From Thermoanaerobaculia bacterium (GTDB lineage: Bacteria > Acidobacteriota > Thermoanaerobaculia > Gp7-AA8), in contig DASPMO010000154.1 of NCBI GenBank assembly GCA_035627015.1, forward strand, positions 3,537-67,536: a DNA stretch of 64,000 bases, in the 5' to 3' direction. Every line of letters begins with the position of its first letter. Within the stretch, counting starts at the first letter, position 1. The translations under genes and the position numbers were made by a program. Below are positions 21,977-42,838 of the stretch, piece after piece. Below the pieces are notes generated by a model. That model saw only the letters and a program-made list of their open reading frames with translations, searched no databases and had not been told where the DNA came from.

Positions 21977-22908
21977 GAAGCGAACGTGACGCCGAGTGCC
22001 GACAGAACGTCACCGATCGGATTGGCGTAGCCGCGCCCCCAGTTGCCTGGACCGCCCGCGCGCGTATTGAGGAAGAGCAGCCCCACGGGCTCGCAGTCAC
22101 GCGTGAAGACGAGCGAGCCACTGTCGCCCGGCAGGCACCACGGCGCCGCGTCGCGCGATTCGATCTCGATCTGGCCCGAGAACGAGAGGCGGCCGCAGCG
22201 ATAGTCGACGTCGAAGAAGTCGAGCTCGATCGCGGTGATGATCCCCTGCGTCCGACCCGTCGTGCGACCGATCTTCTCCACCAAAAGCTGTGTCTCGGCG
22301 ATGGCAACCGTCGATCGCAGTCGCTCGGTCGGACTGAGCGCCAGCGGGTCGAAGGAAAGACCGGGGACGAGCCGTGCGAAAGCGCAGTCGACGCTCTGTC
22401 CTTCTGGCCGCAAACGGGGGTAGTCACCGCAGAGATGGCCGATGACGTCATTGGGAGAGCGCCCGGAGTCGGCGGCGGCGGGATGAAGAATCTCGTCCGC
22501 GTCGACGCCGCGATTCTGGGCGGCGAGTACGTGGTTGTTCGACACGACGCCGACCTCACCTCCCTTCACCGCGAAGAAGCCGATCGTGCCCGCGGGATGC
22601 TCGTAGTGCGCCACCGATGCGCCGATGGAGAGACTCCGCGTCGGCCGCGCATCGCTCGCCGGCAGTACGAGTCGCGGCCCCGTGTACTTGAGGTCCACCT
22701 CGCCAACCGCCTCTTTTTCGAGGTGCGCCAGCAGGTCGGGGTCGACGTCCTCCTCGCTGCGTGCGCGCACGGCCAGGCGGTGTTCGTCGGGTTTGCCGCC
22801 GAGCGCCACGCCGATGGCCATGTTGGCCTTCTCGTCGCTGCGCGCGGTCAGCCAGCGGGGATCGGCCGCGATCGAGCTTTTCAGATCACGAACGGAGCTC
22901 AATCTCAT
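21973..22908 (-). CDS. trypsin-like (S1/chymotrypsin-fold) serine protease
   Basis: Track ORF 21973..23433 trimmed to ATG 22908, which overlaps the upstream stop (ATGA). Candidate triad contexts: VVSNNHVLA (His), ADEILHP or SVDCAFARL (candidate Asp) and LPGDSGSLVF (the classic GDSG Ser). Confidence 0.8.
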   Translation of the reverse strand: MRLSSVRDLKSSIAADPRWLTARSDEKANMAIGVALGGKPDEHRLAVRARSEEDVDPDLLAHLEKEAVGEVDLKYTGPRLVLPASDARPTRSLSIGASVAHYEHPAGTIGFFAVKGGEVGVVSNNHVLAAQNRGVDADEILHPAAADSGRSPNDVIGHLCGDYPRLRPEGQSVDCAFARLVPGLSFDPLALSPTERLRSTVAIAETQLLVEKIGRTTGRTQGIITAIELDFFDVDYRCGRLSFSGQIEIESRDAAPWCLPGDSGSLVFTRDCEPVGLLFLNTRAGGPGNWGRGYANPIGDVLSALGVTFAS

Positions 22909-25295: not shown

Positions 25296-25305
25296 GGCCA
25301 GGCTT

Positions 25306-26442: not shown

Positions 26443-27326
26443 CGGAATGCGGCGTCGAGATTGGCCGCGACGGAGTTGGCCCGGTCGGCGTGGGCGCCCA
26501 GCACGATTGCCTGCCGCGCGAGCGCGTCATGCGAGTCGCTGTCGACCGTGCCGTGCCAGGAGTGCTGCGCAACGAGCGTCTTCAAGGCCGTCACGTCGCC
26601 GCGACGGAGCCGCTCTTCAAAGTGGAGCCGGAAGCGCCTCCGTCCCAGCAGCGCGATCTCGGTCTCGGTGAGCAGGCGCGCAGCGAGCGGTGCGTGCTCC
26701 TCTTCGGCGAGCGCGCGAATCCGCTCCAGCGAACCATCACGGACCGGATCCGGCTCTGCGTCGTCGGCGACGGCGCGCGTCGCGGTGCACACCTCGGCCG
26801 CGGCCGCGCTGCGCCGCTCGAGCGACGGCATGGAAGTCGTGACGCGAGCGAGCAGCGGCACGGCCATCCGCGAAACCAGGCCGGCGAGGTCCGACGCGCG
26901 GCGGAACTGCGCGTCCTGCATGCACTGCGTCATCGACGCGCCGAGTTGCACGAGCGACGCGACCGTGGGCAGTCGCTGAAGAAACTCCGTCACGGCGAGG
27001 CGCCGCAGCTCGTCGACCTCCTGGAGCGCGCGATCCACGTCGGACTTCGCCGCGACGCAAACTGCAATCCCCGCGAGCGCGTCGGCACCGCGACGAATCG
27101 CGCGCACCGCATCGCGCCACTGTCTCGTGTCGACCGCGCGTGCCGCGGCGCCGATCGCGTCGTCACGAACTGTGACCAGCTTGCCGGCGCCGCGCGGACT
27201 CCCCTGCACCGCGCGCGTGTCCATCAGGACTCGGACGGCATCCCGCATCTCCAGTTCGAGCTTGCCGTCGGCGAGCCGGCCATACTCGTACCGCCACAGC
27301 AGATGTTCCAGTTCGCGGACGCTCAC
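26439..27326 (-). CDS. hypothetical protein
   Basis: The 664-aa track ORF 26439..28433 overlaps the MotB-like and MotA-like genes out of frame. It is trimmed to GTG 27326, which overlaps the MotB-like stop (GTGA at 27323-27326). The product is helical. No motif recognised. Confidence 0.5.
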   Translation of the reverse strand: MSVRELEHLLWRYEYGRLADGKLELEMRDAVRVLMDTRAVQGSPRGAGKLVTVRDDAIGAAARAVDTRQWRDAVRAIRRGADALAGIAVCVAAKSDVDRALQEVDELRRLAVTEFLQRLPTVASLVQLGASMTQCMQDAQFRRASDLAGLVSRMAVPLLARVTTSMPSLERRSAAAAEVCTATRAVADDAEPDPVRDGSLERIRALAEEEHAPLAARLLTETEIALLGRRRFRLHFEERLRRGDVTALKTLVAQHSWHGTVDSDSHDALARQAIVLGAHADRANSVAANLDAAFR

Positions 27327-27964
27327 CTCGTGTCCAACCCCGAGAAGTAGATCCGGATCTCGATCCGCCGGTTGCGCGAGCGTTGTTTGTGTGCAGGGCG
27401 AGTGTGGGCGTAGCCGTTCGCGGAGAGTTGTCGCTCGTCGAGCGCAGGATCGCAGCGTTCGCTGAGGAACCGCAGCACCGCCAACGCACGCGCCGTCGAG
27501 AGCTCCCAATTGTCGCGGGGATACGTAGACCGAGACATCGCGGTGCTGTCGGTGTGCCCTTCGATCTGAATCTGGTCGTACAGGCGCGATTGTGAGGTCG
27601 CGTCGAGCCGGTGAATGACAGCCGCGAGACGGCGGAGCAGCGCCGCGCCGCGCGGCTGCAAAGCGTAGTGACCCGACTCGAAAAGGATGCCTTCGCCGAA
27701 CGTGATCTGCAGCAGGTTCACATCCGGCTTCAGGACGATGGCGCCGCTGCGGATCTCGCTGGCGAACTCGCTCTCGAACACAGCGTCGAACCGCTGCTGC
27801 TTCTGTCGCGCGATCTCGGTCGCGAGACTGGTCGGATTGATGTTGTGCTGAACGAAATAGATCAGCATGAAGAACATCAGCAGCGAAGTGAGCATGTCGA
27901 TGATGCCGGGCCAGAAATTGACCTCGGTATCGACAGTCGGCGCGCGTAGGGACGTCGAGATCAT
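27323..27964 (-). CDS. MotB/OmpA-family stator subunit (peptidoglycan-binding)
   Basis: The N-terminal TM FWPGIIDMLTSLLMFFMLIYFV carries the conserved Asp (cf. MotB ..DFMT..MAFF). The C-terminal OmpA-like domain reads FESGHYALQP...IQIEGHTDS...NWELSTARALAVLRFL...GYAHTRP...NRRIEIRIY. Confidence 0.85.
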   Translation of the reverse strand: MISTSLRAPTVDTEVNFWPGIIDMLTSLLMFFMLIYFVQHNINPTSLATEIARQKQQRFDAVFESEFASEIRSGAIVLKPDVNLLQITFGEGILFESGHYALQPRGAALLRRLAAVIHRLDATSQSRLYDQIQIEGHTDSTAMSRSTYPRDNWELSTARALAVLRFLSERCDPALDERQLSANGYAHTRPAHKQRSRNRRIEIRIYFSGLDTR

Positions 27965-27973
27965 GCATTTGCC

Positions 27974-29176
27974 TCAATTCAACGTGCGCAGGATGAGAAT
28001 GACGACCACGGCGATCATCGCGCCGGCGGCAGCGAACCCGAACGTGCGCCGTCCCGTTGCCGTCTGACTGGCCTGCAGCGCGCGGGCGAGACGTTCCACC
28101 GACCCTTGTTGTGCGTTCATCGACGTTTGGATCTGCTGCAGCGTGGTCTCGTGTGTCTGGCGGAACGTCGTGACGATCTGCGGCAGGCGTTCGGTCAGAC
28201 TGAGAATCGCTCCCTGCACGTTCGCGAGTTGCGCGATGACGCCGGTCATTTCGCCCGTCACGCTCTGCAGCGGAGCGGTAGCCGCACGTTGCGTAATGGC
28301 CTCGATGTTTTGAATGACCGTCCCGAACGTGGTCTCCACGGCGGCCATCTGCTCCGCCGACCGCGCCTGCGCGGTGGCAAGGGACTGCAGGTTCTCGAAC
28401 GAGTCGCCGAGTTGACGCGAGAGTTTCTCCCACGGCGTCTCGTCATCAAACGCCGGAATCGTTGCCGGGAGCAGCTCTTCGGTAGTGAACCGCTCGAGCT
28501 GGTCATAGAACATCGATTGCGCGCGGGCGAGACCGAAGTTGAACAGCGAGACGACGATGGAGAAGAAGATGCCGGCGAGCGTCGCCGAGAACGCGGTCTT
28601 CTTGCCGGCGAGAATGCGCCCGAGGCTGCCGACGGATGCGGCCCATTGCGTGGCGGTCGCACCGGAGGATTGGTCGGGCATCGCCTGCTGGATGTCGGCG
28701 ACCATCAGGGAGAGGCCGACGAACGTCCCCAGCAGACCGAGCATCATGACTAGGCTCACGACGTATGCGGGAAGGGAGAGGCTCCACTTTGCGCTCTCAC
28801 TGAGAACGCTGCTCTGCTGCAGCGCGCCGACGTTCACCTTCACGTGCGCGTGCTTCATGCGCAAGATCGTGTCGAGCCGGTCGCCGATCAGCGTCGTCCT
28901 GGGAACGCCCTCGGATAGTTGCTGAAGGTCGACGCTGCCGCTGGCCCGCGGCACCTCGGCGTCTCCTTCGGCGGCAGGGGGCGTCTCGCCGGCGGCCTGC
29001 ATGCGGCGCAGTTTGTCGCGGACGTTCTGCAACGTAGTGAGCTCGTGCGACGTGTAGCGCTGCCAATGCCTGCTCGCGCAAAACGTGCCGAACACGCCAA
29101 AGAAGACGATGAGGCAGATGATCAACCGCCCAACGAGCGTGTTGTTCAGCCACAGAAGCTCGAGGAGCTGCGTCAC
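27974..29176 (-). CDS. MotA/TolQ/ExbB-family proton-channel protein with extended C-terminal helical tail and terminal TM anchor
   Basis: GTG 29176 overlaps the upstream stop (GTGA). Channel motifs: VVSLVMMLGLLGTFVGL (cf. ExbB/TolQ LGLLGTV.G) and AFSATLAGIFFSIVVSLFNFGL (cf. AL..T..GL..AIP....N). A Gln/Ala-rich helical tail of about 150 aa follows. The terminal hydrophobic helix is FGFAAAGAMIAVVVILILRTL. Confidence 0.8.
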   Translation of the reverse strand: MTQLLELLWLNNTLVGRLIICLIVFFGVFGTFCASRHWQRYTSHELTTLQNVRDKLRRMQAAGETPPAAEGDAEVPRASGSVDLQQLSEGVPRTTLIGDRLDTILRMKHAHVKVNVGALQQSSVLSESAKWSLSLPAYVVSLVMMLGLLGTFVGLSLMVADIQQAMPDQSSGATATQWAASVGSLGRILAGKKTAFSATLAGIFFSIVVSLFNFGLARAQSMFYDQLERFTTEELLPATIPAFDDETPWEKLSRQLGDSFENLQSLATAQARSAEQMAAVETTFGTVIQNIEAITQRAATAPLQSVTGEMTGVIAQLANVQGAILSLTERLPQIVTTFRQTHETTLQQIQTSMNAQQGSVERLARALQASQTATGRRTFGFAAAGAMIAVVVILILRTLN

Positions 29177-30361: not shown

Positions 30362-31392
30362 GTCCTCCAATGCGCTGCAGACGGACGGGACACCGTTCTT
30401 TTTGCATCGACAAAACGACCGACTGCCAGTAAGCACGCCCGCACATATCGCCCATTCAATTGAGGAGGAGTTCAATCGTAACGCGTGTGTCTCGTGCCTT
30501 CGTCTGTCCTTTCGTTCTCGCCTTCACCGTCAGCGCCTTTGCCCCGGGGGAACGGTGGCGCTCATCGCGATGGCGGTTATGGCGGCCCTGCTGGCTACGC
30601 TCAGCACGTTCGTGCGCGAGTTGCTGGAGGGCAAGCATTGGCCGGAGACGTTCTTCATTCCGGGGGTACTGGCAATTGTGCGATGTCACGAATTGGCAGA
30701 AGGAGCTGGCGATGCTCGCAATGCCGGACCACCGGAAAAGACAGCGCCTACAGCGGCTTGCAACCAGCCCCGGAGGCGCTGGGATCCGCTGACCGCAGCA
30801 AACAGGACCCGAGTGTCTTCACGATCAAACGCATTGCCGAGCGGCTCGACAACGGCGAGTGACCTCCTCGGCGAAGCAACACCCGACGTCATCGTCACCG
30901 ATCGCCGCCGGCTTCGCGACTCGATTGAACCGTGAGCGCATCGCACTCGACGCGGTAGTGAGTACCTGACAGCGCCGCTCGAGTGTCACTTCCGCGGGCC
31001 GGCGGAGCGTTTCATCGAACTCGAATTGAACTTCAGGAATCAAAGGAGATTGGCCGCTGCTGATAACCGAGTGCTGCACTCGCTCTGCGACAGTCGGAAC
31101 GGCTCGCTGCAGGTGATTCGCGTCATCGGTGACTCGATCTCCGACCTCCTTCTTGATAGGTACGAGGTTCTCCTCGATACCGCATGCAGACGCGGAGTGA
31201 ACGCGACGTCGTGGCGGTTTAGGTCCGGCCCGAAGGAATGACGCGGCTACCTTGCGCGAGGGGGATCATTATCGACAAGCACAACCCAAGTACGATTCCG
31301 TTCGCCTCAGCCATCGTAGCGACTGACAAATAACCCACCAAAAGCACGATCTTCCACGGCTGAAGGGTGTGTCCACGCACCAAATCGAGTGC

Positions 31393-31599
31393 ACCTTGCG
31401 AGTCGGCCGAAACCCGCAAGGTGACTCGCAAGGTCGCCCGCAAGTTACTCGGTTTCAGTGAGTTATCCCACCGTCTGTAGATCGACTTCTCTCTAACCTA
31501 AGTACCCGCGCCCTCCGGCCTGTCACACCGGAGGGCGCGGGAGCCCCGTCGGCCCCGCCAAAATAAGACGCTCACCAGCCGCCACTTGGCGGCTTTTTT
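31393..31599 (+). ncRNA. candidate structured non-coding RNA or leader (three hairpins ending in an intrinsic terminator)
   Basis: 12-bp stem: ACCTTGCGAGTC (31393-31404) pairs with GACTCGCAAGGT (31423-31434). 13-bp stem: CCGCGCCCTCCGG (31506-31518) pairs with CCGGAGGGCGCGG (31528-31540). Terminator hairpin at 31577-31599. No convincing ORF lies here, and the stretch looks less GC-rich than its flanks. Confidence 0.35.
31577..31599 (+). terminator. rho-independent terminator-like hairpin
   Basis: AGCCGCCA-CT-TGGCGGCT followed directly by TTTTTT (GCCGCCACTTGGCGGCTTTTTTC). Confidence 0.6.
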
Positions 31600-31729
31600 C
31601 GTTTCAGCACACGAAAGCGACGAAGTGCCTCCGTGTCTGGTGTCGGGATGGCGAACGTGTAGCCCCAAGCCGGACTTTCCTGGTTTCGGCTACGCCTGGG
31701 TAGGAAAACCGCCATCCCGTGGCTCTCCT

Positions 31730-34700
31730 ATGGAGATGAGCGACGACGTTCAGATCCGGCTCGTGCACGTGGAGTTTCTCCGTCCCGGGCCTCCGCACAA
31801 CCAGCTTCTCTCGCCGCTGACGCAGTACCTCGCCATTTCCGGTGACAGCGGAGCCGGCGTGGTCACGGTGCCGTACGAGCAGGCGGAGTTCTCGCGCCGC
31901 CTCAAGCAACTCCGGTACGACTCGGGGGATCCCGAGGATCGCCTGGCCATGCTGCATTCGACCGGCGTCGAGATGAGCAGGATCCTCGGCGCGGTGCCCG
32001 GGCTGGCCGGTGCACTCACGATGGATGCGAATCACCAGGGAACTCTGATTCAACTTCGCATCACGCTCTCCGCGTCCGAGCTCGCGATGCTGCCGTTCGA
32101 GCTGGCGAAGGCGCCGGTGTCGGCGACGAACACCGCGGAGAACTGGCTGTCGATCCAGACCCGGCCGCCGGTTTGCGTCACGCGCAACATTCGCACGGTC
32201 TCACCCGAAGGGGTCGTCTGGCCGGATCAGCCGCGCATTCTGTTCATTTCCGGGAATCCCGGTGACGTGCCCTACGAGCAACATCGCAAGGCGCTGCTCA
32301 AGGCGATCGAGCCGTTTCAATATCCCGACGAGGACGATGTCGTCGTGACGGAGGAGGGGCGCGAGCAGGGCGGCAGGCTCCTGACGATTCTCGTCGATCC
32401 GACTCTCGCCCGCGTGCTCCGCGAGTGCAGGGAAAACGAGTACACCCACGTCCACATCCTGACGCACGGCGATCTCAACGAGGCCTCGCCTGACTCGTAC
32501 GGGCTGGTGATGCGCGGCGAGGACGGCTCGCCCGAGGTCGTTTCCGGAGACCAGTTCGCCACCGCGCTCGCCTCGGTCCATCACCGGCCGACGGTGGTGA
32601 CCGTGGCCAGTTGCGACAGCGGCAATGTGAATCAGGTCGCGCAACCCGGCGCGAGCTTCGCGCACGCCCTGCACCAGTCGGGGATTCCGCTCGTCCTCGC
32701 ATCGCAGTTTCCGCTGAGCAAGCCAGGTTCGGTGCCGCTCGCGGCGACGCTGTACGACGGCCTGCTCTGGGGGAAGAACCCGCTCGTGCTCCTGCGGGAG
32801 CTCCGCGCGGAGCTGCATACGGTGTACACATCGAAGTGGCATGACTGGGCCAGCCTCGTGGTGTACGAAGCGTTGCCGCAGGCTCTCAACGAGCAGCTGG
32901 AAAAGCTCCGCTATTTTCAGACCAAACGCGCCATCAACGCCACGCTCGAACGAATCGACCGCGCGGTCAAACGGGCCCTCGAAGAGCGAAGCGTGGCCAG
33001 TCTCGAGAAACTCCACAAAGAGATCGAATCCGCGGTCGGGCGGCTGCCGCTCAAAGGTCCGTACTCGGCCGAATGCATCGGCATCCGCGCGAGCGCGCGC
33101 AAACGGCTCGCGCAGGCGGCCTTCAACACTCCCGAATCCCCGCGCGATGCGTATGACCTGCTCGAACAGGCCTACATCGACTACAAATGCGCGGCGGACT
33201 CGCTGCTGGTCATCAGCGAAGGGCCGGCACAACGCGTGGCCACGCTGCACTGGCTGCTCGTGCAGCTCGAATCGCTCGACATGATCCTCGGCCGCGAAGG
33301 CGACGACCGGCGCTGGACCGCCGCTCATCTCTCTGCCGAGATGTACCGGCATCATCTCGACACCGAGCAACGCGCATGGGCTCACGGCAGCCTGGCCGAG
33401 CTCTTTCTCGTGAAGCTCGGCAAAGCCGGTCTGAACGAGGAAGATCGCGAAAAGCATCACCAGGACGTCCTCCAGCACATTCACGAGCTGGTGAAGCTCT
33501 ATCCGCTGCGCACCGAGTTTCCGGTGAAGTCGACGCGCAGGCAGTTCGAGCGCTATGCCGACTGGTGGGGCTCGCAGCAATTCGAAGATGGGTTGAAAGA
33601 GCGCGGGCTGACCCGCCGCGCGCCGTGGGATGGCCAGCACGGCGTGACGCAGGTGGCGAAAGAGGTCGTGAAGATCATGCAGCGCAACCTCCGTCCTCCC
33701 GTCAAGCCGCCTTCTTCCGGATCTGCCGGCGGCAACGGCGGCGGTGCGCCGGAGCCGCCGCCGAAGCCGAGCGGCGGCAAGCCTGGCGGCGGTGCGACGC
33801 TCTCGCGCCGCGCGCGCACCAAGCCTTTCTTCGACATCACCATGCTGCCGGCGGGGCATGGCGACTCGCTGTGGATCGAGTACGGCCAGAACGAGCGCGA
33901 CGTGCATCGCGTGCTCGTCGACTGCGGAACGCAGCAGACGGCGAGGGAGCTGCTGAAGCGCGTCGCCGCGCTGCCGAAACGCGAGCAGTTTTTCGACCTG
34001 TTCATCCTCTCGCACATCGATTCCGATCACATCGGCGGTGCGCTGCCGTTCTTCAAAGCCGTCCGCGATGGCCTGCGCTTCGGCGACGTCTGGTTCAACG
34101 GCTGGCGCCATCTGTCGGACCGGCTCAGCGCGCGGCAGGGGGAGATGTTCTCGACCGCGATTCAGGATCTCGAGCTGCCGTGGAATGTCTGGATGGATGG
34201 CGGGGCCATCGTCATCGGCAACGGAAAGCTGCCGACGTCCACGCTGCCCGGCGGGATGAAGCTCACGCTGCTCTCGCCGACGCCGAAGCAGTTGCAGAAG
34301 CTCGCACCCGTCTGGACCCGGGAGCTCAAGCGCTACGCTCTCACGCCCGGCGCACGCATGGACTACAGCCAGTTCCTCAAGGGCAAGCCGTCGACCTCGA
34401 CGGACCTCGACGAGCTCGCGGAGACGCCGTTCAGCAGCGACCCGGCCGCGCCGAACGGCTCGAGCATCGCCGTCCTCGCCGAGTACGAAGGCGCCGTCGC
34501 CCTCCTCGGCGCCGATGCGCACGCGCCGGTGCTCACCGAATCGCTCGGCAAGCTGCTCCCGCGCGGCAAAACACGGCTGAAGATCGACGCGTTCAAGGTC
34601 TCCCATCACGCGAGCCAGAACAACGTCAGCAGGGAGCTGGTCTCGATGCTCGATTGCCCCCGCTTCCTCGTGTCGAGCAACGGCGCGCACTTCAACCATC

Positions 34701-34885
34701 CCGACCGCGAGGCCATCGCCCGGATCATCAAGTACCGCAAGATCGGCGATCGCAAGCCCGAGCTGATCTTCAACTACCGCACGCCGCTCAACGACGTCTG
34801 GGAGGGACTGCAGGACCGCTACGGCTTCACGGCCCACTACCCGGCGGAGGAACCGGGACAGGTTGTGAGTTTGCTGCCGGAGTAG
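31730..34885 (+). CDS. CHAT protease - helical region - Gly/Pro linker - metallo-beta-lactamase-fold (ComEC-C-like) hydrolase fusion protein
   Basis: Track ORF 31586..34885 trimmed to ATG 31730, because the upstream part overlaps the terminator hairpin. CHAT dyad: YTHVHILTHGDL ... VVTVASCDSGN. Linker: PPVKPPSSGSAGGNGGGAPEPPPKPSGGKPGGG. MBL motifs: ITMLPAGHGDSLWIEY, VLVDCGT, LFILSHIDSDHIGG, FKVSHHASQNN. Confidence 0.8.
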   Translation: MEMSDDVQIRLVHVEFLRPGPPHNQLLSPLTQYLAISGDSGAGVVTVPYEQAEFSRRLKQLRYDSGDPEDRLAMLHSTGVEMSRILGAVPGLAGALTMDANHQGTLIQLRITLSASELAMLPFELAKAPVSATNTAENWLSIQTRPPVCVTRNIRTVSPEGVVWPDQPRILFISGNPGDVPYEQHRKALLKAIEPFQYPDEDDVVVTEEGREQGGRLLTILVDPTLARVLRECRENEYTHVHILTHGDLNEASPDSYGLVMRGEDGSPEVVSGDQFATALASVHHRPTVVTVASCDSGNVNQVAQPGASFAHALHQSGIPLVLASQFPLSKPGSVPLAATLYDGLLWGKNPLVLLRELRAELHTVYTSKWHDWASLVVYEALPQALNEQLEKLRYFQTKRAINATLERIDRAVKRALEERSVASLEKLHKEIESAVGRLPLKGPYSAECIGIRASARKRLAQAAFNTPESPRDAYDLLEQAYIDYKCAADSLLVISEGPAQRVATLHWLLVQLESLDMILGREGDDRRWTAAHLSAEMYRHHLDTEQRAWAHGSLAELFLVKLGKAGLNEEDREKHHQDVLQHIHELVKLYPLRTEFPVKSTRRQFERYADWWGSQQFEDGLKERGLTRRAPWDGQHGVTQVAKEVVKIMQRNLRPPVKPPSSGSAGGNGGGAPEPPPKPSGGKPGGGATLSRRARTKPFFDITMLPAGHGDSLWIEYGQNERDVHRVLVDCGTQQTARELLKRVAALPKREQFFDLFILSHIDSDHIGGALPFFKAVRDGLRFGDVWFNGWRHLSDRLSARQGEMFSTAIQDLELPWNVWMDGGAIVIGNGKLPTSTLPGGMKLTLLSPTPKQLQKLAPVWTRELKRYALTPGARMDYSQFLKGKPSTSTDLDELAETPFSSDPAAPNGSSIAVLAEYEGAVALLGADAHAPVLTESLGKLLPRGKTRLKIDAFKVSHHASQNNVSRELVSMLDCPRFLVSSNGAHFNHPDREAIARIIKYRKIGDRKPELIFNYRTPLNDVWEGLQDRYGFTAHYPAEEPGQVVSLLPE

Positions 34886-34944
34886 CGTGACCTCTCGGCT
34901 GCCCGCTGGCGCAGCGAGCTCGTCAGGGGTACCATTTCGCCATC

Positions 34945-35514
34945 ATGAAAAACCTATTCGCGGTGCTCCTGCTCGCCATGGCTCTGTCTGCCGCCGCCGC
35001 GGAGGAACCGAAGAAGCCGGCCGATTTCACGGGGCCGGCGACGATGTGCAACGGCACGTACGCCCTCTGCATCAAGGCGCCGTGCGAGAAGAAGCCGGAC
35101 GCGAATAATCTCTATCCGTGCGGCTGCGTCATCCAGACCGGCTGGAACATGGGACCGAACTCGTGCGACGACCGGCAGAAGAACCTCACCTCGACGTACT
35201 CGAACCTGTTCAACCTCGGCAGCGCCACGGTCAGCTGCCCGGCGTCGACGCAGTGGGCGTGGTGCTACGGCGCGAAGTGCGAGGTCGACCCGCGCGACCC
35301 GACGCGGGCCATCTGCAAGTGCCCGACGAGCACCAAGCCGACCGTGATCCTGGTGAGCCAGGCCATGTGCTCCGACCCGGGCAAGGTCTGCGGGATGCTC
35401 TGGTCGGGAGCGACGCCTGCCGAGAGCAAGTTCGCGAACGAGTATTACTACTGGTGGATGACCACGAACGGGCAACAGTCGAATCTGCCCTCGACGGCGT
35501 GCGCGTCGAACTAG
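34945..35514 (+). CDS. secreted cysteine-rich protein, function unknown
   Basis: Signal peptide: MKNLFAVLLLAMALSAAAA. The mature part has about 16 Cys (CNGTYALCIKAPCEKK...CGCV...CKCP). Confidence 0.65.
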   Translation: MKNLFAVLLLAMALSAAAAEEPKKPADFTGPATMCNGTYALCIKAPCEKKPDANNLYPCGCVIQTGWNMGPNSCDDRQKNLTSTYSNLFNLGSATVSCPASTQWAWCYGAKCEVDPRDPTRAICKCPTSTKPTVILVSQAMCSDPGKVCGMLWSGATPAESKFANEYYYWWMTTNGQQSNLPSTACASN

Positions 35515-35517
35515 CGA

Positions 35518-35873
35518 TTTCAGCGAGTTCGCTGAAATCGCAAGCGATTGCGCTTCGAAGTTAAGAGAACTCGCTGAAAAATCGTGACTGCGCGCTTGCG
35601 ATTTCAGCGAGTTCGCTTAAGTTTCAGCGAACTCGCTGAAATCGCCACTGAATTCGCGGACAAATTCAGCGAACTCGCTGAAAGTACCAGCGTGCATTGG
35701 CCACATTTTCAGCGAGTTCGCTGAAAATGCAGCGCGCCAAGCCTGCGTTTTCAGCGAGTTCGCTGAAAATATGGCGGATCACCGCTGCATTCGCGGCAGT
35801 CAACGTTCCATTTTCAGCAGTTACGCCGAGGTGGGCGGTGGCATCGGTATGATTTTCAGCGGACTCGCTGAAG
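35518..35873. repeat. array of about 9 copies of a 20-bp perfect palindrome TTTCAGCGA(G/A)(T/C)TCGCTGAAA (operator-, iteron- or centromere-like)
   Basis: Full copies start at 35518, 35602 (degenerate 3' end), 35622, 35664, 35707, 35749 and 35854. Right-half or degenerate copies start at 35560 and 35812. Start-to-start spacings are 42, 42, 20, 42, 43, 42, 63 and 42 bp. The last copy abuts the SD (AAGGAGGA) and ATG 35883 of the XRE gene. Confidence 0.85.
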
Positions 35874-35882
35874 GAGGAAGCG

Positions 35883-36245
35883 ATGAAGGTGCGTGAGTTT
35901 GGAGTGCGGCTGACGCAGTTTCGCGAGCGGCAGCACCTGTCGATGACCCAGCTCGCGAACCTCCTCGGCATCGACTACATGCAGATCTCGCGCTACGAGA
36001 AGGGGCAGAGCCTGCCGTCGCTCGAGACCGCGATGCGTCTCGCGAAGGTTCTCCAGGTCTCCCTCGACGAGCTCACCGGCAGCGAGCCTCCGCCGGGCCC
36101 GCCCGCGTTCACCAACACCCGCCTCTTCGAGCGCATGCGCCAGCTCGACCAGCTTCCCGCCCACCGACAGGAGCTCGCCCTGCGTGTCCTCGATACAGTC
36201 ATCTCGGGGCACGAGCTCGAAAGCCTGGCGGGACGGCTTCGATGA
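35883..36245 (+). CDS. XRE-family helix-turn-helix transcriptional regulator
   Basis: LTQFRERQHLSMTQLANLLGIDYMQISRYEKGQSLPSLETAMRLAKVLQVSLDEL is a typical HTH_3/XRE domain. A strong SD is present. The stop overlaps the next start (ATGA at 36242-36245). Confidence 0.85.
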   Translation: MKVREFGVRLTQFRERQHLSMTQLANLLGIDYMQISRYEKGQSLPSLETAMRLAKVLQVSLDELTGSEPPPGPPAFTNTRLFERMRQLDQLPAHRQELALRVLDTVISGHELESLAGRLR

Positions 36246-38284
36246 TCCACGTGAAGCGGCCCCCCGCGTCTCCGCACCTCGCCGCGGTACTTGAGCGTGC
36301 GGCGGCGCGGACCAATCAGGAATTCAAGAAGCACCGTGGGGCGCAGACGAGATTCGAGTTCTCGCGGAAGGAGTGGAGTGAGGCTGCGCTCCCTCTGTAC
36401 ACGATGTTCCACGGCAAGTGCGCGTATTGCGAGACGCCATTCGACAGGTGGGCGGGTGGAAACGTCGATCATTTCCGGCCGAAGCTGGGGGCGTGCGACC
36501 TCGAGGGCACGATCGATCCGAATCACTACTACTGGCTCGCCTACGATTGGTCGAATCTCTACATCGGTTGCGGCGAATGTGAGCTGAACAAGAAAACGTT
36601 CTTTCCCGTAGAAGGAAAGCGCGCACCCATTGATGGCTCGATCCGCGGTGAGCAGCCACTTCTGATCGACCCGTGCGGTGAGGACCCGAGGAAGCACCTT
36701 CGGTTCCTGAGTGACGGGTACGTCCGACACACTTCGATTCGTGGAAATGTGACGATCAAGCTGCTGGGCCTGAACCGCATGTCGCTGGTCGAGAAACGGA
36801 TGGCTGCGATCGAAGAAGCCGAGCTCAGGCTCCGGAACGGTGCCACCCCGGTAGAGCTGACCGCGCCGCACGTTCCGTATCTCGCCGCGATCATGGACAC
36901 CCTCCCCGTACGACACGCCGCGCGCCGGGTGGCGATGTCCGTGCAGGAACCGCTGGCAAAGAAACAGACGGCAGTCTCGAAAAAGCTGGCCGCCACCGCC
37001 ACCGCCTTCCGCACCGGCGGCTTCCTCAAACGCATCGTCCTCACCAACTTCCGCAGCATCCGGAGTCTCTCGCTGAACATCACTCCCTCGCAGGGGGAGG
37101 AGCAGGCGGGGTGGCTGATGCTCCTCGGGGAAAACGCGGCAGGCAAGTCGTCGATCCTGCAGGCCGTCGCTCTCGCGCTGGCTGGCGACGAGGGACTCGA
37201 GGGGTTCGAGCAGGAATCGTTCGACGCGATGATCCGCAACGGCACGAGCGCGGCGACGGTGATCGTCGAAACGTCGGCCGATCCGCCGCGCATCGAGCTG
37301 CAATTTCAGCGCGGCAAGCGCCCGCACTTCGTGCACGGCGGCGACGGATATCCGGGCCTGGTTCTCGGCTACGGCGCGACGCGCATCGCGGACGATAAAG
37401 CGAAGGTCAGCGGCAGCACGAGCGCGCGCCGCATCCTCAACCTCTTCGACCCGCGGGTGCGGCTGACGCCGGCCGAGGCGTGGCTGCTCGAGCTGTCGAA
37501 GAGCTCCAAGGCATTCAACGACGCGGCGAAGTCGCTCAAATCGCTGCTGCGGATCACCAACGTCAGGACGCCGCTCACCGTCCGCAACCGGCGCATCCGC
37601 ATCGACCACGGCAATGGTCCGGTCCTCGTCGAGCAGCTGAGCGCCGGGTATCACGCGATGCTCGGCCTCGGGATCGACATCATGCAGGCAGCGCCGGCGC
37701 AGATGACGGACAAACGCTACGCCTCCGGGATCGTCATCCTCGACGAGATCGACGCGCACCTGCATCCGCGCTGGAAGATGAACGTGGTCGGGTTGCTGCG
37801 CGACGCCTTTCCGATGATTCAGTTCATCGTGAGCACGCACGAGCCGCTCTGCCTGCGCGGCACGAAGCGCAAAGAAGTGGTGTTGATGCGGACGAACGAG
37901 AAGCGCGCCGTCGAAGCGGTGACCGACCTGCCGCCGCACGAGACCATGCGCGTCGACCAGTTGCTGACGTCGCCGCTGTTCGGCCTCCACACCACCCTCG
38001 ATCCCGAGGTGGAGAAGGAGTTTCGCGACTACTACGCGCTGCTGGCGAAGCCGACCCGGACGGCGAAGGACCGAAGGATCATCGCGGCGAAAAAAGAGCA
38101 GCTCTCGCGTCACGGAATCCTCGGTTACACGCGCCGCGATCAGCTCATCTACGAATGGATCGACGACTTTCTCGCACAGGAGCCGCTGCTCGACAGGGAA
38201 GGGCGTGCGAAATTGAAGGAGGAGACGAAGCAGAAGGTGCTGTCCCTCTGGCGGCGCGCCGCGTCCGCGGGGAGCCCGGCATGA
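36242..38284 (+). CDS. fusion of N-terminal HNH-type nuclease domain with ABC/SMC-like (AAA_15/21-type) ATPase (PtuA-like)
   Basis: HNH: GKCAYCETPF...NVDHFRPK...WSNLYIGCGECELNK. ATPase: IVLTNFRSIRSLSL, Walker A LMLLGENAAGKSSIL, Walker B GIVILDEIDAHLHPRW, and IQFIVSTHEP. Confidence 0.8.
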   Translation: MIHVKRPPASPHLAAVLERAAARTNQEFKKHRGAQTRFEFSRKEWSEAALPLYTMFHGKCAYCETPFDRWAGGNVDHFRPKLGACDLEGTIDPNHYYWLAYDWSNLYIGCGECELNKKTFFPVEGKRAPIDGSIRGEQPLLIDPCGEDPRKHLRFLSDGYVRHTSIRGNVTIKLLGLNRMSLVEKRMAAIEEAELRLRNGATPVELTAPHVPYLAAIMDTLPVRHAARRVAMSVQEPLAKKQTAVSKKLAATATAFRTGGFLKRIVLTNFRSIRSLSLNITPSQGEEQAGWLMLLGENAAGKSSILQAVALALAGDEGLEGFEQESFDAMIRNGTSAATVIVETSADPPRIELQFQRGKRPHFVHGGDGYPGLVLGYGATRIADDKAKVSGSTSARRILNLFDPRVRLTPAEAWLLELSKSSKAFNDAAKSLKSLLRITNVRTPLTVRNRRIRIDHGNGPVLVEQLSAGYHAMLGLGIDIMQAAPAQMTDKRYASGIVILDEIDAHLHPRWKMNVVGLLRDAFPMIQFIVSTHEPLCLRGTKRKEVVLMRTNEKRAVEAVTDLPPHETMRVDQLLTSPLFGLHTTLDPEVEKEFRDYYALLAKPTRTAKDRRIIAAKKEQLSRHGILGYTRRDQLIYEWIDDFLAQEPLLDREGRAKLKEETKQKVLSLWRRAASAGSPA

Positions 38285-39099
38285 TTCGCGTGAAGCGTGG
38301 TGACGCGCCGGCGTGCCTGCTCGATGACGGTGCCGCGGGACGCGAGCGCAGGAAAGCCGAGGAGCTCCGGAAGAAGCATCCGAAGAAGAGCTTCCCGTTC
38401 AAAGTGTACGCGTCCGAGGAGGTCAAGCTCGCGCTGGAGCGGCTGTTCCGCGGCAAATGCGCGTACTGCGAGACGCGGTATGCCGCGTCACAGCCGATGG
38501 ACGTGGAGCACTGGCGTCCGAAGTCGCAGTATCCGTGGGCCGCGTCGGACTGGGACAACCTCCTGCCGTCGTGCATCGACTGCAACCGGCAGCGGTATCA
38601 GTTGCTCGTCGACGAGAGGAAGAAAGTGCGCGCCGGGAAGGGCACGTTGTTTCCACTCGCCAAAGGATCGAAGCGGGCCACCTCGCGCGCCGCGATGGCG
38701 CGGGAAGTGCCGCTGCTCCTGCATCCCGCCAATGACGATCCCGACGAGCACCTGCGGTACACCGAGGAGGCGGTCGTGCGCGCGCGGCGGAACAGCGAAA
38801 AAGCGCCCGAGTCCATCCGCGTCTATGCGCTGAACCGCTCCGCCCTGGTCGACGAGCGGCTGCAACTGCTGCTCCTTCTCCGCCACCGGATGCACACCAT
38901 CGCAGTGCTGATCGATCTGCTCGACCGCTCGACCGGCAGGACAGCGGAACTGATCGAGGATCTGCTCATCCACGAAATGACGGAGCTGCACGCCTTCGCC
39001 CATCCGGCGCGGCCCTATTCGGCGATGGCGCGGCATTTCATCAAAGAGTTCGCGAAGACGATCGAGCACTCGCGCCTTACTAGCGATAGCATCAGATAA
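38281..39099 (+). CDS. stand-alone HNH endonuclease (PtuB/TIGR02646-like), paralogous to the N-terminus of the preceding protein
   Basis: Track ORF 37480..39099 trimmed to ATG 38281 (ATGA overlap). MIRVKRGDAPACL parallels MIHVKRPPASPHL of the previous gene. HNH: GKCAYCETRY...DVEHWRPKS...WDNLLPSCIDCNRQ. LLLHPANDDPDEHLRY parallels LLIDPCGEDPRKHLRF. Confidence 0.8.
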   Translation: MIRVKRGDAPACLLDDGAAGRERRKAEELRKKHPKKSFPFKVYASEEVKLALERLFRGKCAYCETRYAASQPMDVEHWRPKSQYPWAASDWDNLLPSCIDCNRQRYQLLVDERKKVRAGKGTLFPLAKGSKRATSRAAMAREVPLLLHPANDDPDEHLRYTEEAVVRARRNSEKAPESIRVYALNRSALVDERLQLLLLLRHRMHTIAVLIDLLDRSTGRTAELIEDLLIHEMTELHAFAHPARPYSAMARHFIKEFAKTIEHSRLTSDSIR

Positions 39100-39111
39100 G
39101 GAGCCAACCCG

Positions 39112-39342
39112 ATGCCGACCTCCACCATCACGAGCAAGGGACAAACGACCGTACCGAAGGAAGTGCGGGACGCGCTCGACATCGGCCCGGGCGACAAAAT
39201 TACATGGGAAGTGAACGGCGGCCGCGTTTCGGTCGCGACGGAGCGCCCCGCGTTCTGGCGATGGGAAGGCTTCATCAAGCACGGCCCCACCGACGTGGTG
39301 AAAGCCGTTCACGAAGCGCGGAAGCGAAGAGGGCGTATCTGA
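39112..39342 (+). CDS. vapB: AbrB/SpoVT-type antitoxin (VapB-like)
   Basis: MPTSTITSKGQTTVPKEVRDALDIGPGDKITWEV is the canonical SpoVT/AbrB swapped-hairpin motif. SD-like aaggag lies upstream. Confidence 0.8.
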   Translation: MPTSTITSKGQTTVPKEVRDALDIGPGDKITWEVNGGRVSVATERPAFWRWEGFIKHGPTDVVKAVHEARKRRGRI

Positions 39343-39343
39343 C

Positions 39344-39490
39344 GTGCAACGCGTCGTCGTCGATGCGAACGTCTTTCTCTCCACGGCGATCGTCGCCGTC
39401 GCCGCGAGCAAACGATACGACGCCATCGCCACCTTCGACCAGAAGCTCGGCAAACGCGCGAAAGACCTCGGCGTCGCCACATACTGGTAA
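39344..39490 (+). pseudogene. internally deleted PIN-domain (VapC-like) toxin remnant
   Basis: My translation from GTG 39344: VQRVVVDANVFLSTAIVAVAASKRYDAIATFDQKLGKRAKDLGVATYW*. It keeps the PIN N-terminal strand (VVDANV) and the C-terminal TFD..L motif. It is only 48 aa long, against about 130 aa for an intact PIN. Confidence 0.55.
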
Positions 39491-39496
39491 CTGCGC

Positions 39497-41722
39497 ATGG
39501 CTGTGCTCCCCACCACCCAAGAGCGATCTCGCCGCGAGCTCCTGCTCGCCCTGAGCTTCGCGCTCTGGGGGCTCTGCATCGCCATCGCCATGAGCTCCGT
39601 GCTGCGCAAGCCGGCGCCGCCCGATCAGGCCATGAGTGTGGCCACGCTCGCCAACATCGATGCCAAAGGCTCCATGCGGTGGATGTTCTGTCTCCTCCTC
39701 TTCCCGGTGCTCGTGCCGGCGGTCTTGCGGCCGGTGGCGCGGCGTTTGGCGGAGGGGGAGGCGTGGGCGCGGAACGTGGTGGTCGCAGCGCCGCTGGTCA
39801 CGTTGTGGCTGATCAGCGTGCAGCAGCGCGTGCCGTGGGCGATCGTGCCGTGCGGGATCGTCGTGCTGGCATGCCTGCTCTTGCGCAAGCGGGAGTTGCA
39901 GTTCACGCGGCGCGACTTCGTGCTCGTGCCGACGTTCCTGGCGGCGCTCCTCGCGCTGATCGACATCGGGACGACGCTCGCGGCGCACCAGCACGTCCTC
40001 CTCGCGGCCATGCTCGTGCTGGCGCTGCGCATCGGCGTCACGTTCATCCGCTCTCCGCTGCCGCCCGCGTTTGCGTTCGTCCTCGCGCCGCTGGGGCTGG
40101 TCCTGCAGACCGGGTTCTTCGCGCGGGACCAGCGCTACTTCGGGTGGCATGCGCTGGCGGTCGTCGTGGTCACGCCGTTCGTGCTGCGCCTCTTCCTGCG
40201 GCGGGAGCGGCTGGCCATGCGGCTCCTGACGCTGGTCGCGTTTCCGCTCGCGCTCTACGCATACGGCAACGCCACCAGCGCCTCCACGGCCTTCGGAAAA
40301 TCGCGCGTCAACTACTTCGAGGACGGGCACGCGCTCGTCCCCGCGTCGGAGTATCTGCGCGGCGAGCTCCCCTATCGCGACATCCTGCCGGGCCACGGAC
40401 TGATCGAGGACGGGCTGTTCGACTACTTCGTCTTCCGGACCGGCGAGGTCACGGTCGGGCGGACGCTGAAGGCGCGCGAGATCTTCGGACAGCTCAACAG
40501 CGTGGCGCTGTACGCGCTCGCCTTCGCGGCCACCGGCTCGGCGGAGGCGGCGTTCCTGACCGTCCTGTTGAGCATGATGACCGGCACCTTCACGCCGACC
40601 ATCCGGACGCTCGTCCCGGTCACGGCCCTCGCGTGCATGGTGGCGGGAGTGCGCACGCGCGGGCGCCACTGGTTCGCCTGGGCCGGCCTGGCCACGGTCC
40701 TCAGCGGCGCGATGAGTCTCGACTACGCGTTCTACACCTGCGGCGCGCTGGCGGTGGCGATGCTCCTGGCGGGACTCCGGCGCACGCTCGTGCCCGCGGC
40801 CCTCGGGATCGCCGCCGGGGTCGTGCCGCTGTTCGGGACCTTCGCCGCGCTGGGGATCCTCGACGACTTCCTCCGCGGCACGTTCGTCGAGACCCCCGCC
40901 GCGTCGACCGCGTACCGCCTCGGCTTCTTCCGCGCGCCGGCGGCGATGCAGCAGCATCCCTCCTTCCCCGAGGTGCTGACGGTGCTGCTCCAGCCGGACG
41001 TGTACCAGAACCTGGTCTGGCTGATCATCGTCGTGAGCCTCGGCGCGGCGCTGACGCGCCGCTGGCCGCGCACGGTCCAGCCGCTGCTCGTGCTCGCGTC
41101 GTGGGTGGCGCTGTCGGGGATCTCCTTCGCCTACCGCTTCAACCATTACTTCGGGATGATCGCCGTCGTGCTGCTGGCCGGGTGGATCTTCCGCCTGGTG
41201 CGGAAGCGGAGCCCGTGGGCGATCGCCGCGATCGCCGCGGCCATCATCCTGGCGCGGCCGTCGATGCACGCGGCGGTCGTGGGAGTGAACCGGGCCGCGC
41301 GCGGCACGCCGCCCGCCGACTGGGTGGAGATCCGCGACATCCCCCGCGCGCGCGGCGCGCTCTGGCACGTGCGCGACGCCACGGCCATCGCCGGCGTGCA
41401 GAAGTACCTCTCGCTCACCCTCGCACCGCACGAGACGTTCTTCAATTTCTCGGACACGGCCATCCTCCACTACGTGACGCGGCGGGACTGGCCCATCCGC
41501 GAATACGAGATGGCCTACCTCCAGTCCGAGGAGAAGCAGCGCGAGGTCATCCGCGTCATCGAATCCAACCCGCACATCCGCGCGCTGCTCATCCGCGAAG
41601 GAGATTTCTCCATCGACTTCATCCCCAACTCCCGGCGGGCGCCCCTCCTCCATCAGTACCTGCTCGACCATTTCGAGCCCGACTTCGAGGAGGGGCACGT
41701 CACGTTCTGGCGGCGGAAGTGA
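39497..41722 (+). CDS. polytopic integral membrane protein (GT-C-like glycosyltransferase possible; function unknown)
   Basis: 741-aa ORF with more than 12 hydrophobic helices across the first 560 aa or so, then a soluble C-terminal domain of about 170 aa. Two overlapping Arg/Pro-rich alternative-frame ORFs were rejected. Confidence 0.7.
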   Translation: MAVLPTTQERSRRELLLALSFALWGLCIAIAMSSVLRKPAPPDQAMSVATLANIDAKGSMRWMFCLLLFPVLVPAVLRPVARRLAEGEAWARNVVVAAPLVTLWLISVQQRVPWAIVPCGIVVLACLLLRKRELQFTRRDFVLVPTFLAALLALIDIGTTLAAHQHVLLAAMLVLALRIGVTFIRSPLPPAFAFVLAPLGLVLQTGFFARDQRYFGWHALAVVVVTPFVLRLFLRRERLAMRLLTLVAFPLALYAYGNATSASTAFGKSRVNYFEDGHALVPASEYLRGELPYRDILPGHGLIEDGLFDYFVFRTGEVTVGRTLKAREIFGQLNSVALYALAFAATGSAEAAFLTVLLSMMTGTFTPTIRTLVPVTALACMVAGVRTRGRHWFAWAGLATVLSGAMSLDYAFYTCGALAVAMLLAGLRRTLVPAALGIAAGVVPLFGTFAALGILDDFLRGTFVETPAASTAYRLGFFRAPAAMQQHPSFPEVLTVLLQPDVYQNLVWLIIVVSLGAALTRRWPRTVQPLLVLASWVALSGISFAYRFNHYFGMIAVVLLAGWIFRLVRKRSPWAIAAIAAAIILARPSMHAAVVGVNRAARGTPPADWVEIRDIPRARGALWHVRDATAIAGVQKYLSLTLAPHETFFNFSDTAILHYVTRRDWPIREYEMAYLQSEEKQREVIRVIESNPHIRALLIREGDFSIDFIPNSRRAPLLHQYLLDHFEPDFEEGHVTFWRRK

Positions 41723-42838
41723 TCACGCGGTCGTCTTCTTGAAGCGCATCACCGCCAGGGTGATGATCAGGAACGTATACGTCGCCAGGAGCGTGGCCGG
41801 GCGCCAGAGGTCCATCAGGCTCGAGCCGCGCAGGACGATGCCGCGGATGACGTCGATGAAGTACTTCGCCGGCACGAGCGCGGAGAGCCACTGGAAGATC
41901 TTCGGCATGCCCGCGATCGGGAAGACGAAGCCGCTGAGGAAGACGAACGGCAGCAGGAAGAACATCGACATCTGCGAGGCCTGCATCTGCGTCTGGGCCA
42001 CGGTGGAGATCAGCATCCCCAGGCCGAGCACCGCGGCCATGAAGAGAAAGCCGACCACGTAGAGCTCCAGCACCGAGCCCATGATCTCCACCTTGAACAG
42101 GAAGCGCATGAGCAGCACCGCCAGCGTGAACTGGAAGTAGCCGATGACGATGAAAGGCATGATCTTGCCGAGGATCAGCTCCGCGCGCGTGGCGGGCGTG
42201 ACCTGCAGCTGCTCGAGCGTGCCGCGCTCGCGCTCGCGCACGATGGCCGTGGCCGTGAACTGGATCAGCGTGAAGGTGAGGATGATGGCGATCAGCCCGG
42301 GGATGATGAAGCGCGACGTGCGCAGGTCGGGGTTGTACCAGGGGCGCACGCGCAGGTCGACGGGCATGGCCTTGTGCTTCCAGCCGCCGGCGCGCGCCAG
42401 CACCTCGATGGACATCTTCTGGGAGATGCCGCTCATGATGGACATGGCCTGCGACGAGGTCGTGCTGTCGGAGGCGTTGACGATCAGGAAGGCCTGCGCC
42501 GGTGCGTGGCGGTGGCGGTCCTTGCCGAAGTCGGCGTCGATGACCAGGCCGACCGCGGCCCGCGCGGAGTCGATCTCCGCCTGCATGGCCTTCATCGTGT
42601 CGACGTGCTTGACCACGTCGAAGTAGCCGGTGCCGGTCATCCTGGCCACGAGCTCGCGGCTCTCGAACGAGCGGCTCTCGTCCAGGACCACGGTCCGGAG
42701 GTGTTTCACGTCGTAGTTGATGGCGTAGCCGAAGATCAGGGTCTGCAGCAGCGGCACCATGACGATCATGCGCAGCGTCATCGTGTCGCGCTTCAATTGC
42801 AGGAATTCTTTCCAGGTCAAGGCGAGGAGGCGATTCAT
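41723..42838 (-). CDS. ABC-2 type transporter permease
   Basis: The 685-aa track ORF was split. ATG 42838 overlaps the ATPase stop (ATGA). MNRLLALTWKEFLQLKRDTMTLRMIVMVPLLQTLIFGYAI is a typical ABC-2 N-terminus. Six C-terminal TM helices are present. Confidence 0.85.
   Translation of the reverse strand: MNRLLALTWKEFLQLKRDTMTLRMIVMVPLLQTLIFGYAINYDVKHLRTVVLDESRSFESRELVARMTGTGYFDVVKHVDTMKAMQAEIDSARAAVGLVIDADFGKDRHRHAPAQAFLIVNASDSTTSSQAMSIMSGISQKMSIEVLARAGGWKHKAMPVDLRVRPWYNPDLRTSRFIIPGLIAIILTFTLIQFTATAIVRERERGTLEQLQVTPATRAELILGKIMPFIVIGYFQFTLAVLLMRFLFKVEIMGSVLELYVVGFLFMAAVLGLGMLISTVAQTQMQASQMSMFFLLPFVFLSGFVFPIAGMPKIFQWLSALVPAKYFIDVIRGIVLRGSSLMDLWRPATLLATYTFLIITLAVMRFKKTTA

Follow-up and report, generated by a model that had tools for sequence, protein, structure and literature searches.

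A putative Septu type I pair with a PtuB-like domain on its long PtuA, found behind an XRE gene in a Thermoanaerobaculia genome

In the published PtuAB systems, the C-terminal claw of PtuA ATPase dimers grasps the helical C-terminal domain of a single PtuB. The nuclease is controlled by the nucleotide state, and its action leads to nicking or degradation of DNA, or to cleavage of tRNA-Tyr with abortive infection (PMC12065111, PMC12819146, PMC12475279, PMC13096335). For the Septu system of Bacillus thuringiensis, phage escapers map to the tail fibre (bioRxiv 10.1101/2022.08.27.505566). The PADLOC paper has Septu types I and II only and does not mention a domain fused to PtuA. Here we describe a PtuA-PtuB pair on contig DASPMO010000154.1 of a Thermoanaerobaculia bacterium (assembly GCA_035627015.1), in a 64-kb stretch of DNA that we call the window; positions given without another label are those of this whole stretch. 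An initial annotation of this DNA had proposed a Septu-like module of three genes, in which an XRE regulator controls a new HNH-ATPase fusion and a second HNH protein. The explanation that we favour, and consider probable, is that the locus is a Septu type I pair, that the HNH copy fused to its PtuA is a pseudo-nuclease, and that the pair was inserted behind an XRE gene already resident at this site.

Assignment to Septu type I

Three genes lie in tandem on the forward strand. They encode an XRE-family helix-turn-helix (HTH) regulator of 120 amino acids (35883-36245; Pfam HTH_3, E=2e-16), a long PtuA of 680 amino acids (36242-38284) and a free PtuB of 272 amino acids (38281-39099). The initial annotation had described three same-strand open reading frames (ORFs) with ATGA overlaps. 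Both overlaps are present and can be read straight off the sequence, at 36242-36245 between the XRE gene and ptuA and at 38281-38284 between ptuA and ptuB. Every motif that it quoted was likewise found and mapped. The mechanically called ORF of PtuB opens farther upstream, in frame with the start at 38281.

The 680-amino acid protein matched the PADLOC PtuA1 model PDLC00292 (726 positions) along the entire model with E=2e-183. Two more long PtuA1 models, of 733 and 773 positions, also matched this protein (E=8e-147 and 2e-102); the long PtuA1 models of PADLOC, spanning 726-773 positions, are PDLC00292, PDLC00288 and PDLC00291. Pfam places AAA_21, SMC_N and AAA_15 on the same protein and HNH on the 272-amino acid protein. 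The latter matched the PtuB1 model PDLC00328 (E=1e-67) and scored 66.6 bits against TIGR02646, for which the cutoff is 52.15. The N-terminal domain of the long PtuA scored 39 bits against TIGR02646, which is under the cutoff, and matched the PtuB1 model PDLC00339 with E=5e-42. The free PtuB also aligned to positions 1-249 of PDLC00292, so the N-terminus of that model is itself PtuB-like. Sequence matches in the PDB were to PtuA and PtuB chains only, from E. coli Septu and from retrons Eco7/Ec78/Ec83.

The gene order agrees with these matches. On one strand, ptuB comes directly after ptuA, the two overlap by 4 nt, and there is no reverse transcriptase (RT) gene. The PtuA ATPase has an intact Walker A, Walker B and H-loop, and PtuB is a TIGR02646-type HNH protein with its catalytic His/Asn and zinc finger. 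The neighbours of the pair are the XRE gene, a Cys-rich ORF, a gene with CHAT and MBL domains and an AbrB-like gene. Judged by profiles and gene order, the genes at 36242-38284 and 38281-39099 form a PtuA-PtuB pair of the anti-phage system Septu type I and belong to the long-PtuA clade. The likeness to Septu suggested at the outset was therefore borne out, and the PADLOC hidden Markov models (HMMs) narrow it to type I.

The NCBI annotation of this metagenome-assembled genome starts the ATPase at Met55 and gives a protein of 626 amino acids. That start drops 54 conserved residues of the N-terminal domain (36242-36404) and masks the overlap with the XRE gene. Because homologues of the ATPase align from Met1, with M1 and I2 nearly invariant, the 680-amino acid reading is, on this alignment, the correct one, and the XRE gene does overlap its start by ATGA.

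The PtuB-like domain of the long PtuA

From its N-terminus, the long PtuA consists of a PtuB-like HNH-fold domain, a disordered linker, an ABC/SMC-type ATPase and a C-terminal helical extension. The N-terminal domain (amino acids 1-225, 36242-36916, forward strand) is supported by BLASTP, PDLC00339 and AlphaFold2 (AF2) with Foldseek, and the ATPase module (amino acids 258-680, 37013-38284, forward strand) by Pfam, PADLOC, AF2 and motif mapping. The ATPase carries Walker A GENAAGKSS (amino acids 296-304, 37127-37153), a signature-like QLSAGY (37634-37651), Walker B and D-loop ILDEIDAHLH (amino acids 499-508, 37736-37765) and H-loop VSTHEP (amino acids 530-535, 37829-37846). C-terminal helices are predicted at amino acids 588-676 in the monomer AF2 model. 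The N-terminal domain contains CAYCE (60-64), VDHFRPK (75-81) and CGECELNK (110-117) and retains the zinc-finger cysteines C60, C63, C110 and C113, together with D75-H76 and N105.

The AF2 model of the whole long PtuA had a mean predicted local distance difference test score (pLDDT) of 85.7 and a predicted template modelling score (pTM) of 0.84, with residues 227-242 of the linker disordered. The top PDB matches of this model in Foldseek were all PtuA chains (9e90, 9nnb, 8eea). Modelled alone, the N-terminal domain reached a pLDDT of 94.8, and its first matches were PtuB chains (E=5e-7 to 6e-5, TM about 0.5-0.6); Cas9 HNH domains matched weakly and ranked after them. Profile, BLASTP and fold matches thus agree that the domain is a genuine HNH/PtuB-fold paralogue, as had been claimed for it, and that this PtuA carries an N-terminal PtuB fold with the four conserved zinc cysteines.

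Results from a search of a 5.8-billion-protein collection showed that this architecture is common. There were 883 matches, of which the best 120 clusters were analysed. Almost all of these are 660-780 amino acids long, many have the JGI label 'TIGR02646 family', and the N-terminal CxxC...RP...CxxC module is present in 120/120. We also surveyed 163 loci fetched from genomes and metagenomes, which are designated by L-numbers. Forty of these are fused and the rest have a canonical short PtuA with PtuB. The fused loci come from Acidobacteriota, Actinomycetota, Alpha- and Gammaproteobacteria and Bacteroidota. A free PtuB-like gene lies directly downstream, usually overlapping, in all 38 of the fused loci with enough downstream sequence, and in the window the separate, directly downstream PtuB has a complete set of catalytic residues. 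Plasmids of cultured bacteria carry the fused type too (Bacillus cereus, B. mycoides, Klebsiella variicola, Rhizobium, Sinorhizobium, Gluconobacter and Priestia). Examples are WR52_RS28985/28990 on B. cereus pRML01 and ISA75_RS27570/27575 on K. variicola pBM374-1. On these plasmids the two genes are labelled 'AAA family ATPase' and 'hypothetical protein' or 'retron system putative HNH endonuclease'.

By these comparisons the fused architecture is an old, widespread clade that the PADLOC HMMs already cover. The idea of a new HNH-ATPase variant does not survive this: three PADLOC PtuA1 models span the fusion end to end, it occurs in hundreds of clusters, and both the models and the architecture survey place it in an already catalogued Septu. 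Our literature searches, with incomplete coverage of the literature, turned up no description of an HNH-fused PtuA.

The survey also returned other arrangements at the start of ptuA. At two loci (L011 596-3874 and L102 about 1770-4700) the PtuB-like N-terminal domain occupies its own frame just upstream of the ATPase and a normal PtuB follows. This split form could be a frameshift or a true three-gene HNH'-ATPase-HNH form, which would be a possible pre-fusion state. Further PtuA homologues (those of L018, L021, L045, L056, L124, L126 and L134, and the protein P0109) have other, much longer N-terminal extensions in ORFs of 940-1640 amino acids, one of them with TPR repeats, and the N-terminus of PtuA seems to be a general site of domain accretion. 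At some fused loci (L092 1578-3824, L094 2316-3836, L095 2328-3833 and L110 3402-3806) a different upstream gene has a 4-nt overlap with the start of ptuA; these genes are possible lineage-specific third components.

We compared the two HNH copies directly. BLASTP of the 680-amino acid protein against the 272-amino acid protein gave 31% identity over 229 columns (residues 1-206 against 1-213, E=2e-25), so the reported repetition of the HNH module in both proteins is paralogy far beyond chance. The free PtuB contains CAYCE (60-64), VEHWRPK (75-81) and CIDCNRQR (98-105). Its catalytic set is complete (E76-H77, N93 and N102), as is its zinc finger (C60, C63, C98 and C101). The initial annotation had contrasted ELNK in the fused copy with CNRQ in the free copy. 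The fused copy does differ here, but the register of that contrast was wrong; in register, the residues from the last cysteine of the second CxxC read C-E-L-N-K in the fused copy and C-N-R-Q-R in the free copy, and the metal-binding Asn is replaced by Glu114.

The same comparison across the clade gave a clear difference between the copies. Of the free PtuB partners of fused PtuA, 37/37 retain both the Glu-His pair and the Asn that follows the second CxxC. By contrast, among the best clusters the fused domain has the His in 61/120 (Arg in 29, Gln in 15, other residues in the remainder) and the Asn in 34/120, and only 17/120 have both. The fetched loci have the His in 23/37 fused domains and the Asn in 11/37. 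Invariant positions in the fused-domain alignment are the four zinc cysteines, K59, E64, R79, P80, W103, N105, F121, P122, R179 and R186. In characterised systems, defence is abolished by the PtuB mutation H57A (PMC12673091) and by mutation of H75 or N91 (PMC13096335). Because the fused copy has lost these residues clade-wide while their mutation in PtuB abolishes defence, the role that the clade has preserved in the fused domain is most likely structural or regulatory, not catalytic. In the long-PtuA clade the fused copy probably keeps the zinc finger and the fold without selective constraint on the His and Asn. The suggestion that the fused copy is catalytically altered thereby gains support from the whole family, when its losses are set against the 37/37 retention in the free copy.

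These alignments also bear on the age of the fusion. The fused domain is 35.8% identical to its own partner and 35.4% identical to the PtuB of other loci, and a neighbour-joining tree places 34/37 fused domains apart from the PtuB clade. Fused domains are 39% identical among themselves, as compared to 47% for free PtuBs. Because own-partner identity equals cross-locus identity and the tree separates the two groups, the duplication and fusion are, by this reckoning, ancient and not local. A recent local HNH duplication was rejected on the same two grounds, and with it the proposal that one HNH copy was fused here as a local variant.

By homology with E. coli Septu and the retron-Eco7/Ec78 PtuAB, the PtuA ABC-type ATPase would dimerise or oligomerise, and its C-terminal helical claw would grip one PtuB. 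Nucleotide state and a phage cue would gate the PtuB nuclease, which would cut DNA or tRNA so that infection aborts. Each long PtuA would in addition bear its ancient PtuB paralogue on a flexible linker, and this tethered copy may serve as a substrate- or trigger-binding arm, or as a decoy or regulator that acts in cis on the PtuB site. We infer that the locus works by the published PtuAB scheme, that the free PtuB acts as its effector, and that no other nuclease would be obligatory. A bolder and more tentative idea, to which we give somewhat less than even weight, is that the long-PtuA clade forms a Septu subtype with a mechanism of its own, in which the tethered dead PtuB either senses the cue or substrate or, before the system is activated, sits in cis in the docking or active site of PtuB. 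Were this true, stoichiometry and control logic would differ from those of the E. coli PtuA6-PtuB2 complex.

The XRE gene, its palindromes and the probably inserted cassette

The two sides of the pair were compared with the related loci L166 and L167. By blastn, window 35519-36241, which holds the palindromes described below and the XRE gene, corresponds to L166 3503-4228 with 85.8% identity, and window 39525-41172 corresponds to L166 4239-5886 with 91.0% identity. In L166/L167 the stop of the XRE gene and the start of the gene behind it share an ATGA. The gene behind it is the orthologue of one for a multi-pass membrane protein (741 amino acids, no family match), which in the window lies at 39497-41722 on the forward strand. 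The cassette in the window stands in place of 10 bp in the relative (L166 4229-4238), exactly from the XRE stop to the start of the next gene. Because the collinear L166/L167 join XRE directly to the membrane-protein gene, 36242-39524 appears to be a 3.28-kb insertion relative to their arrangement; a precise deletion in the relative is less likely. Neither a target-site duplication at the junctions nor a tRNA or integrase marker was seen, and the window contains no tRNA genes.

In addition to ptuA and ptuB, the inserted segment carries two small genes, both on the forward strand. One encodes an AbrB/MazE-fold antitoxin-like protein of 76 amino acids (39112-39342; MazE_antitoxin E=3e-10, TIGR01439) and is not conserved with Septu elsewhere. 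The other is a 48-amino acid ORF (39344-39490) known from its translation, with no Pfam match. Judged by eye, its sequence (VVVDANV...TFD) is like the two ends of a PIN/VapC toxin joined together, and it is a possible remnant of such a toxin; this reading was set aside for want of a Pfam or HMM match.

At L001 a gap of 10 bp separates the ptuAB pair from the gene upstream, which is unrelated. The layouts of L001 and the window suggest that ptuAB are promoterless cassettes. Since the cassette was inserted between XRE and its native downstream gene, it is probably read from the XRE promoter, with nine phased palindromes as putative operators.

These palindromes (TTYAGCR-N4-YGCTRAA, 18 bp each) form an array of nine at 35519-35872, upstream of the XRE gene. 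They are spaced at multiples of 21 bp (42, 42, 20, 42, 43, 42, 63 and 42 bp). The pattern count gave 8 matches against 0.12 expected, with nine copies in the 365 bp upstream of XRE. The XRE protein scored 72 bits against NF041951 (RstR-like), under the 80-bit cutoff. It belongs to a well-conserved family of about 122 amino acids, with homologues that are 65-88% identical in other Acidobacteria and have unrelated neighbours. We examined six independent loci of XRE homologues (arrays at L166 3482-3856, L168 3589-3990, L170 3680-3990, L172 3531-3969, L173 3199-3989 and L174 3532-3967). Each has 8-13 such sites with the same phasing, at spacings of 21/42/63 bp, and the last palindrome ends 10-11 nt before the ATG in 5/7 loci, the window included. 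The cargo downstream of XRE and its array varies: Septu in the window, a methylase with NaeI at L173, and elsewhere cytochrome c, DUF2306 or a membrane protein. This pattern points to a putative operator array of the XRE protein that belongs to the XRE gene rather than to Septu. The unit of XRE and its phased array may be a set of operators bound cooperatively, or else a hotspot for insertions.

Two other origins of the palindromes were considered and rejected. A genome-wide palindrome like the repetitive extragenic kind was discarded since the strict pattern (three or fewer mismatches) occurs nowhere else in the 64-kb window and tracks the XRE family; a looser degenerate motif has 9 matches elsewhere in the window. 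As an RNA element, the array gave sub-threshold Rfam noise. Its half-sites are degenerate without compensation, as judged with no dedicated covariation test, and protein binding is therefore favoured over an RNA element.

Alternative explanations and comparison with known systems

The physical coupling of XRE to ptuA by an ATGA overlap is real in the window genome, and this would also be expected of a dedicated three-gene module in which XRE is an evolved repressor, like the control (C) proteins of restriction-modification (RM) systems or CapH of CBASS. Operator-like palindromes upstream of XRE and its weak matches to the PADLOC capH, RmrA and control-protein models agree with such a module. 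Other loci do not. The 38 upstream ORFs taken from 30 other fused loci include no HTH gene and no recurring family, and the closest PtuA relatives, L001 (70%) and L002 (59%), are without XRE. phmmer found no XRE relative beside ptuA in 83 loci; its single match, at L040, is weak and lies on the opposite strand about 1.8 kb downstream of a ptuB-like ORF. XRE and its array also accompany unrelated cargo, and in L166 the XRE gene runs straight into the membrane-protein gene. A regulator conserved with the system across loci was thus not found, and we give the dedicated module a very low probability. The XRE-ptuA-ptuB trio is not an evolved module; the proposal that XRE is one of its components fails on the upstream ORFs and on the L166/L167 synteny, which shows insertion. 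Less credible still, to the point of being nearly dismissed, is that the pair is the effector of a type I-A retron (Septu type II) whose RT and non-coding RNA (ncRNA) were overlooked. Its appeal lies in names, since the best NCBIfam matches are called 'retron Ec78 PtuA/PtuB' and TIGR02646 is titled 'retron system putative HNH endonuclease'. The retron Ec78 equivalogs, however, scored far under their cutoffs (109 against 500 and 68 against 150), no RT domain was found in neighbouring ORFs, and neither a retron ncRNA nor any other Rfam family exceeded threshold in 31000-42000. The PADLOC retron I-A models also scored far worse than the PtuA1 and PtuB1 models. With no RT, no ncRNA and equivalog HMMs under cutoff, a retron I-A identity was rejected.

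The remaining rival is a dual-nuclease Septu in which both HNH copies are active and cut both strands, or DNA and RNA, instead of nicking. It draws on the D75-H76, N105 and four zinc cysteines of the fused copy, in which the sole change is Asn to Glu, a possible metal ligand, and on the 17/120 clade members that have both His and Asn. Against this, the general-base His is missing from 59/120 relatives and the Asn from 86/120, so catalysis cannot be the conserved function of the fused domain, while the free partners are intact in 37/37. We regard the dual nuclease as unlikely, and prefer an inserted Septu type I pair with a pseudo-nuclease on PtuA. Several points nevertheless weigh against this preference. 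Glu, which takes the place of the metal-binding Asn beside an otherwise retained D75-H76 and N105, can bind metal, and the long PtuA of the window may have residual nuclease activity. The His is kept by half of the long-PtuA clade. A role of the fused domain as binding arm or as decoy or regulator goes a step beyond the alignments. The direction of the indel, insertion here as opposed to deletion in L166, rests on one collinear pair, and a scan of 35400-39500 found no sigma-70-like promoter.

Farther upstream there are other genes of possible defence function. A 1099-amino acid protein (31586-34885, forward strand) combines an N-terminal CHAT protease with a C-terminal MBL fold and matches the PADLOC LmuA model (E=1e-69) as well as Avs1a and RTasMBL models; it may be a defence gene in its own right beside Septu. 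Between it and the XRE gene lies a 189-amino acid Cys-rich ORF (34945-35514, forward strand) with a signal-peptide-like N-terminus and no matches in Pfam, PADLOC or NCBIfam. On the reverse strand, at 21973-25421, an 838-amino acid ORF with a weak nSTAND3 NTPase match lies beside a 486-amino acid ORF with a weak match to trypsin-like peptidases, and several large ORFs without family follow at 25306-29176. The region 21973-29176 is possibly more of a defence island.

The candidate 'Septu variant with XRE' therefore comes down to a standard, tool-callable Septu type I pair beside an unrelated regulator. Its comparative interest lies in a phylum-spanning Septu clade, found on plasmids as well, with a PtuB-derived domain on PtuA and with catalytic constraint lost only there. 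None of the solved PtuAB structures has a fused PtuB-like domain.

As a comparison, OLD, Gabija GajA and PARIS AriAB also use an ABC ATPase dimer to gate a fused or bound nuclease (PMC12065111). In OLD and GajA a Toprim nuclease is fused C-terminally and in PARIS AriB is separate, whereas here an HNH fold is N-terminal and a second, intact HNH protein is separate. The RM C-proteins and CapH share with this locus a small XRE gene directly upstream, overlapping a defence gene, and palindromes before the regulator. They differ in that the link of XRE to Septu is unique to the window locus, and the XRE family has its own array of 8-13 sites and variable cargo. Type I-A retrons or Septu type II (Eco7/Ec78 and Ec83) have a homologous ATPase and HNH protein. 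Retron PtuB has a catalytic His, a four-cysteine zinc finger and a C-terminal domain that docks on the PtuA C-termini (PMC12673091, PMC12819146). The window pair is without RT, ncRNA and msDNA, and no RT gene with msr/msd lies beside ptuAB. Retron PtuA does have an N-terminal extension, but instead of an HNH domain it consists of a short helix in contact with the RT (PMC12819146).

The closest described system is Septu type I (E. coli PDB 8EE4/8EE7/8EEA; B. thuringiensis HD12). Like the pair in the window, it has two co-oriented, overlapping genes and no RT, an ABC/SMC-like ATPase with Walker A/B and C-terminal helices, and a TIGR02646 zinc-finger HNH partner with His/Asn. By contrast, solved PtuA chains, including those of retrons, are 456-552 amino acids long and begin at the ATPase, whereas the PtuA described here has an additional PtuB-like domain of 225 amino acids and a linker. 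The same full architecture is found in PDLC00292, PDLC00288 and PDLC00291, which are unnamed HMM clusters within the 'Septu type I' of PADLOC.

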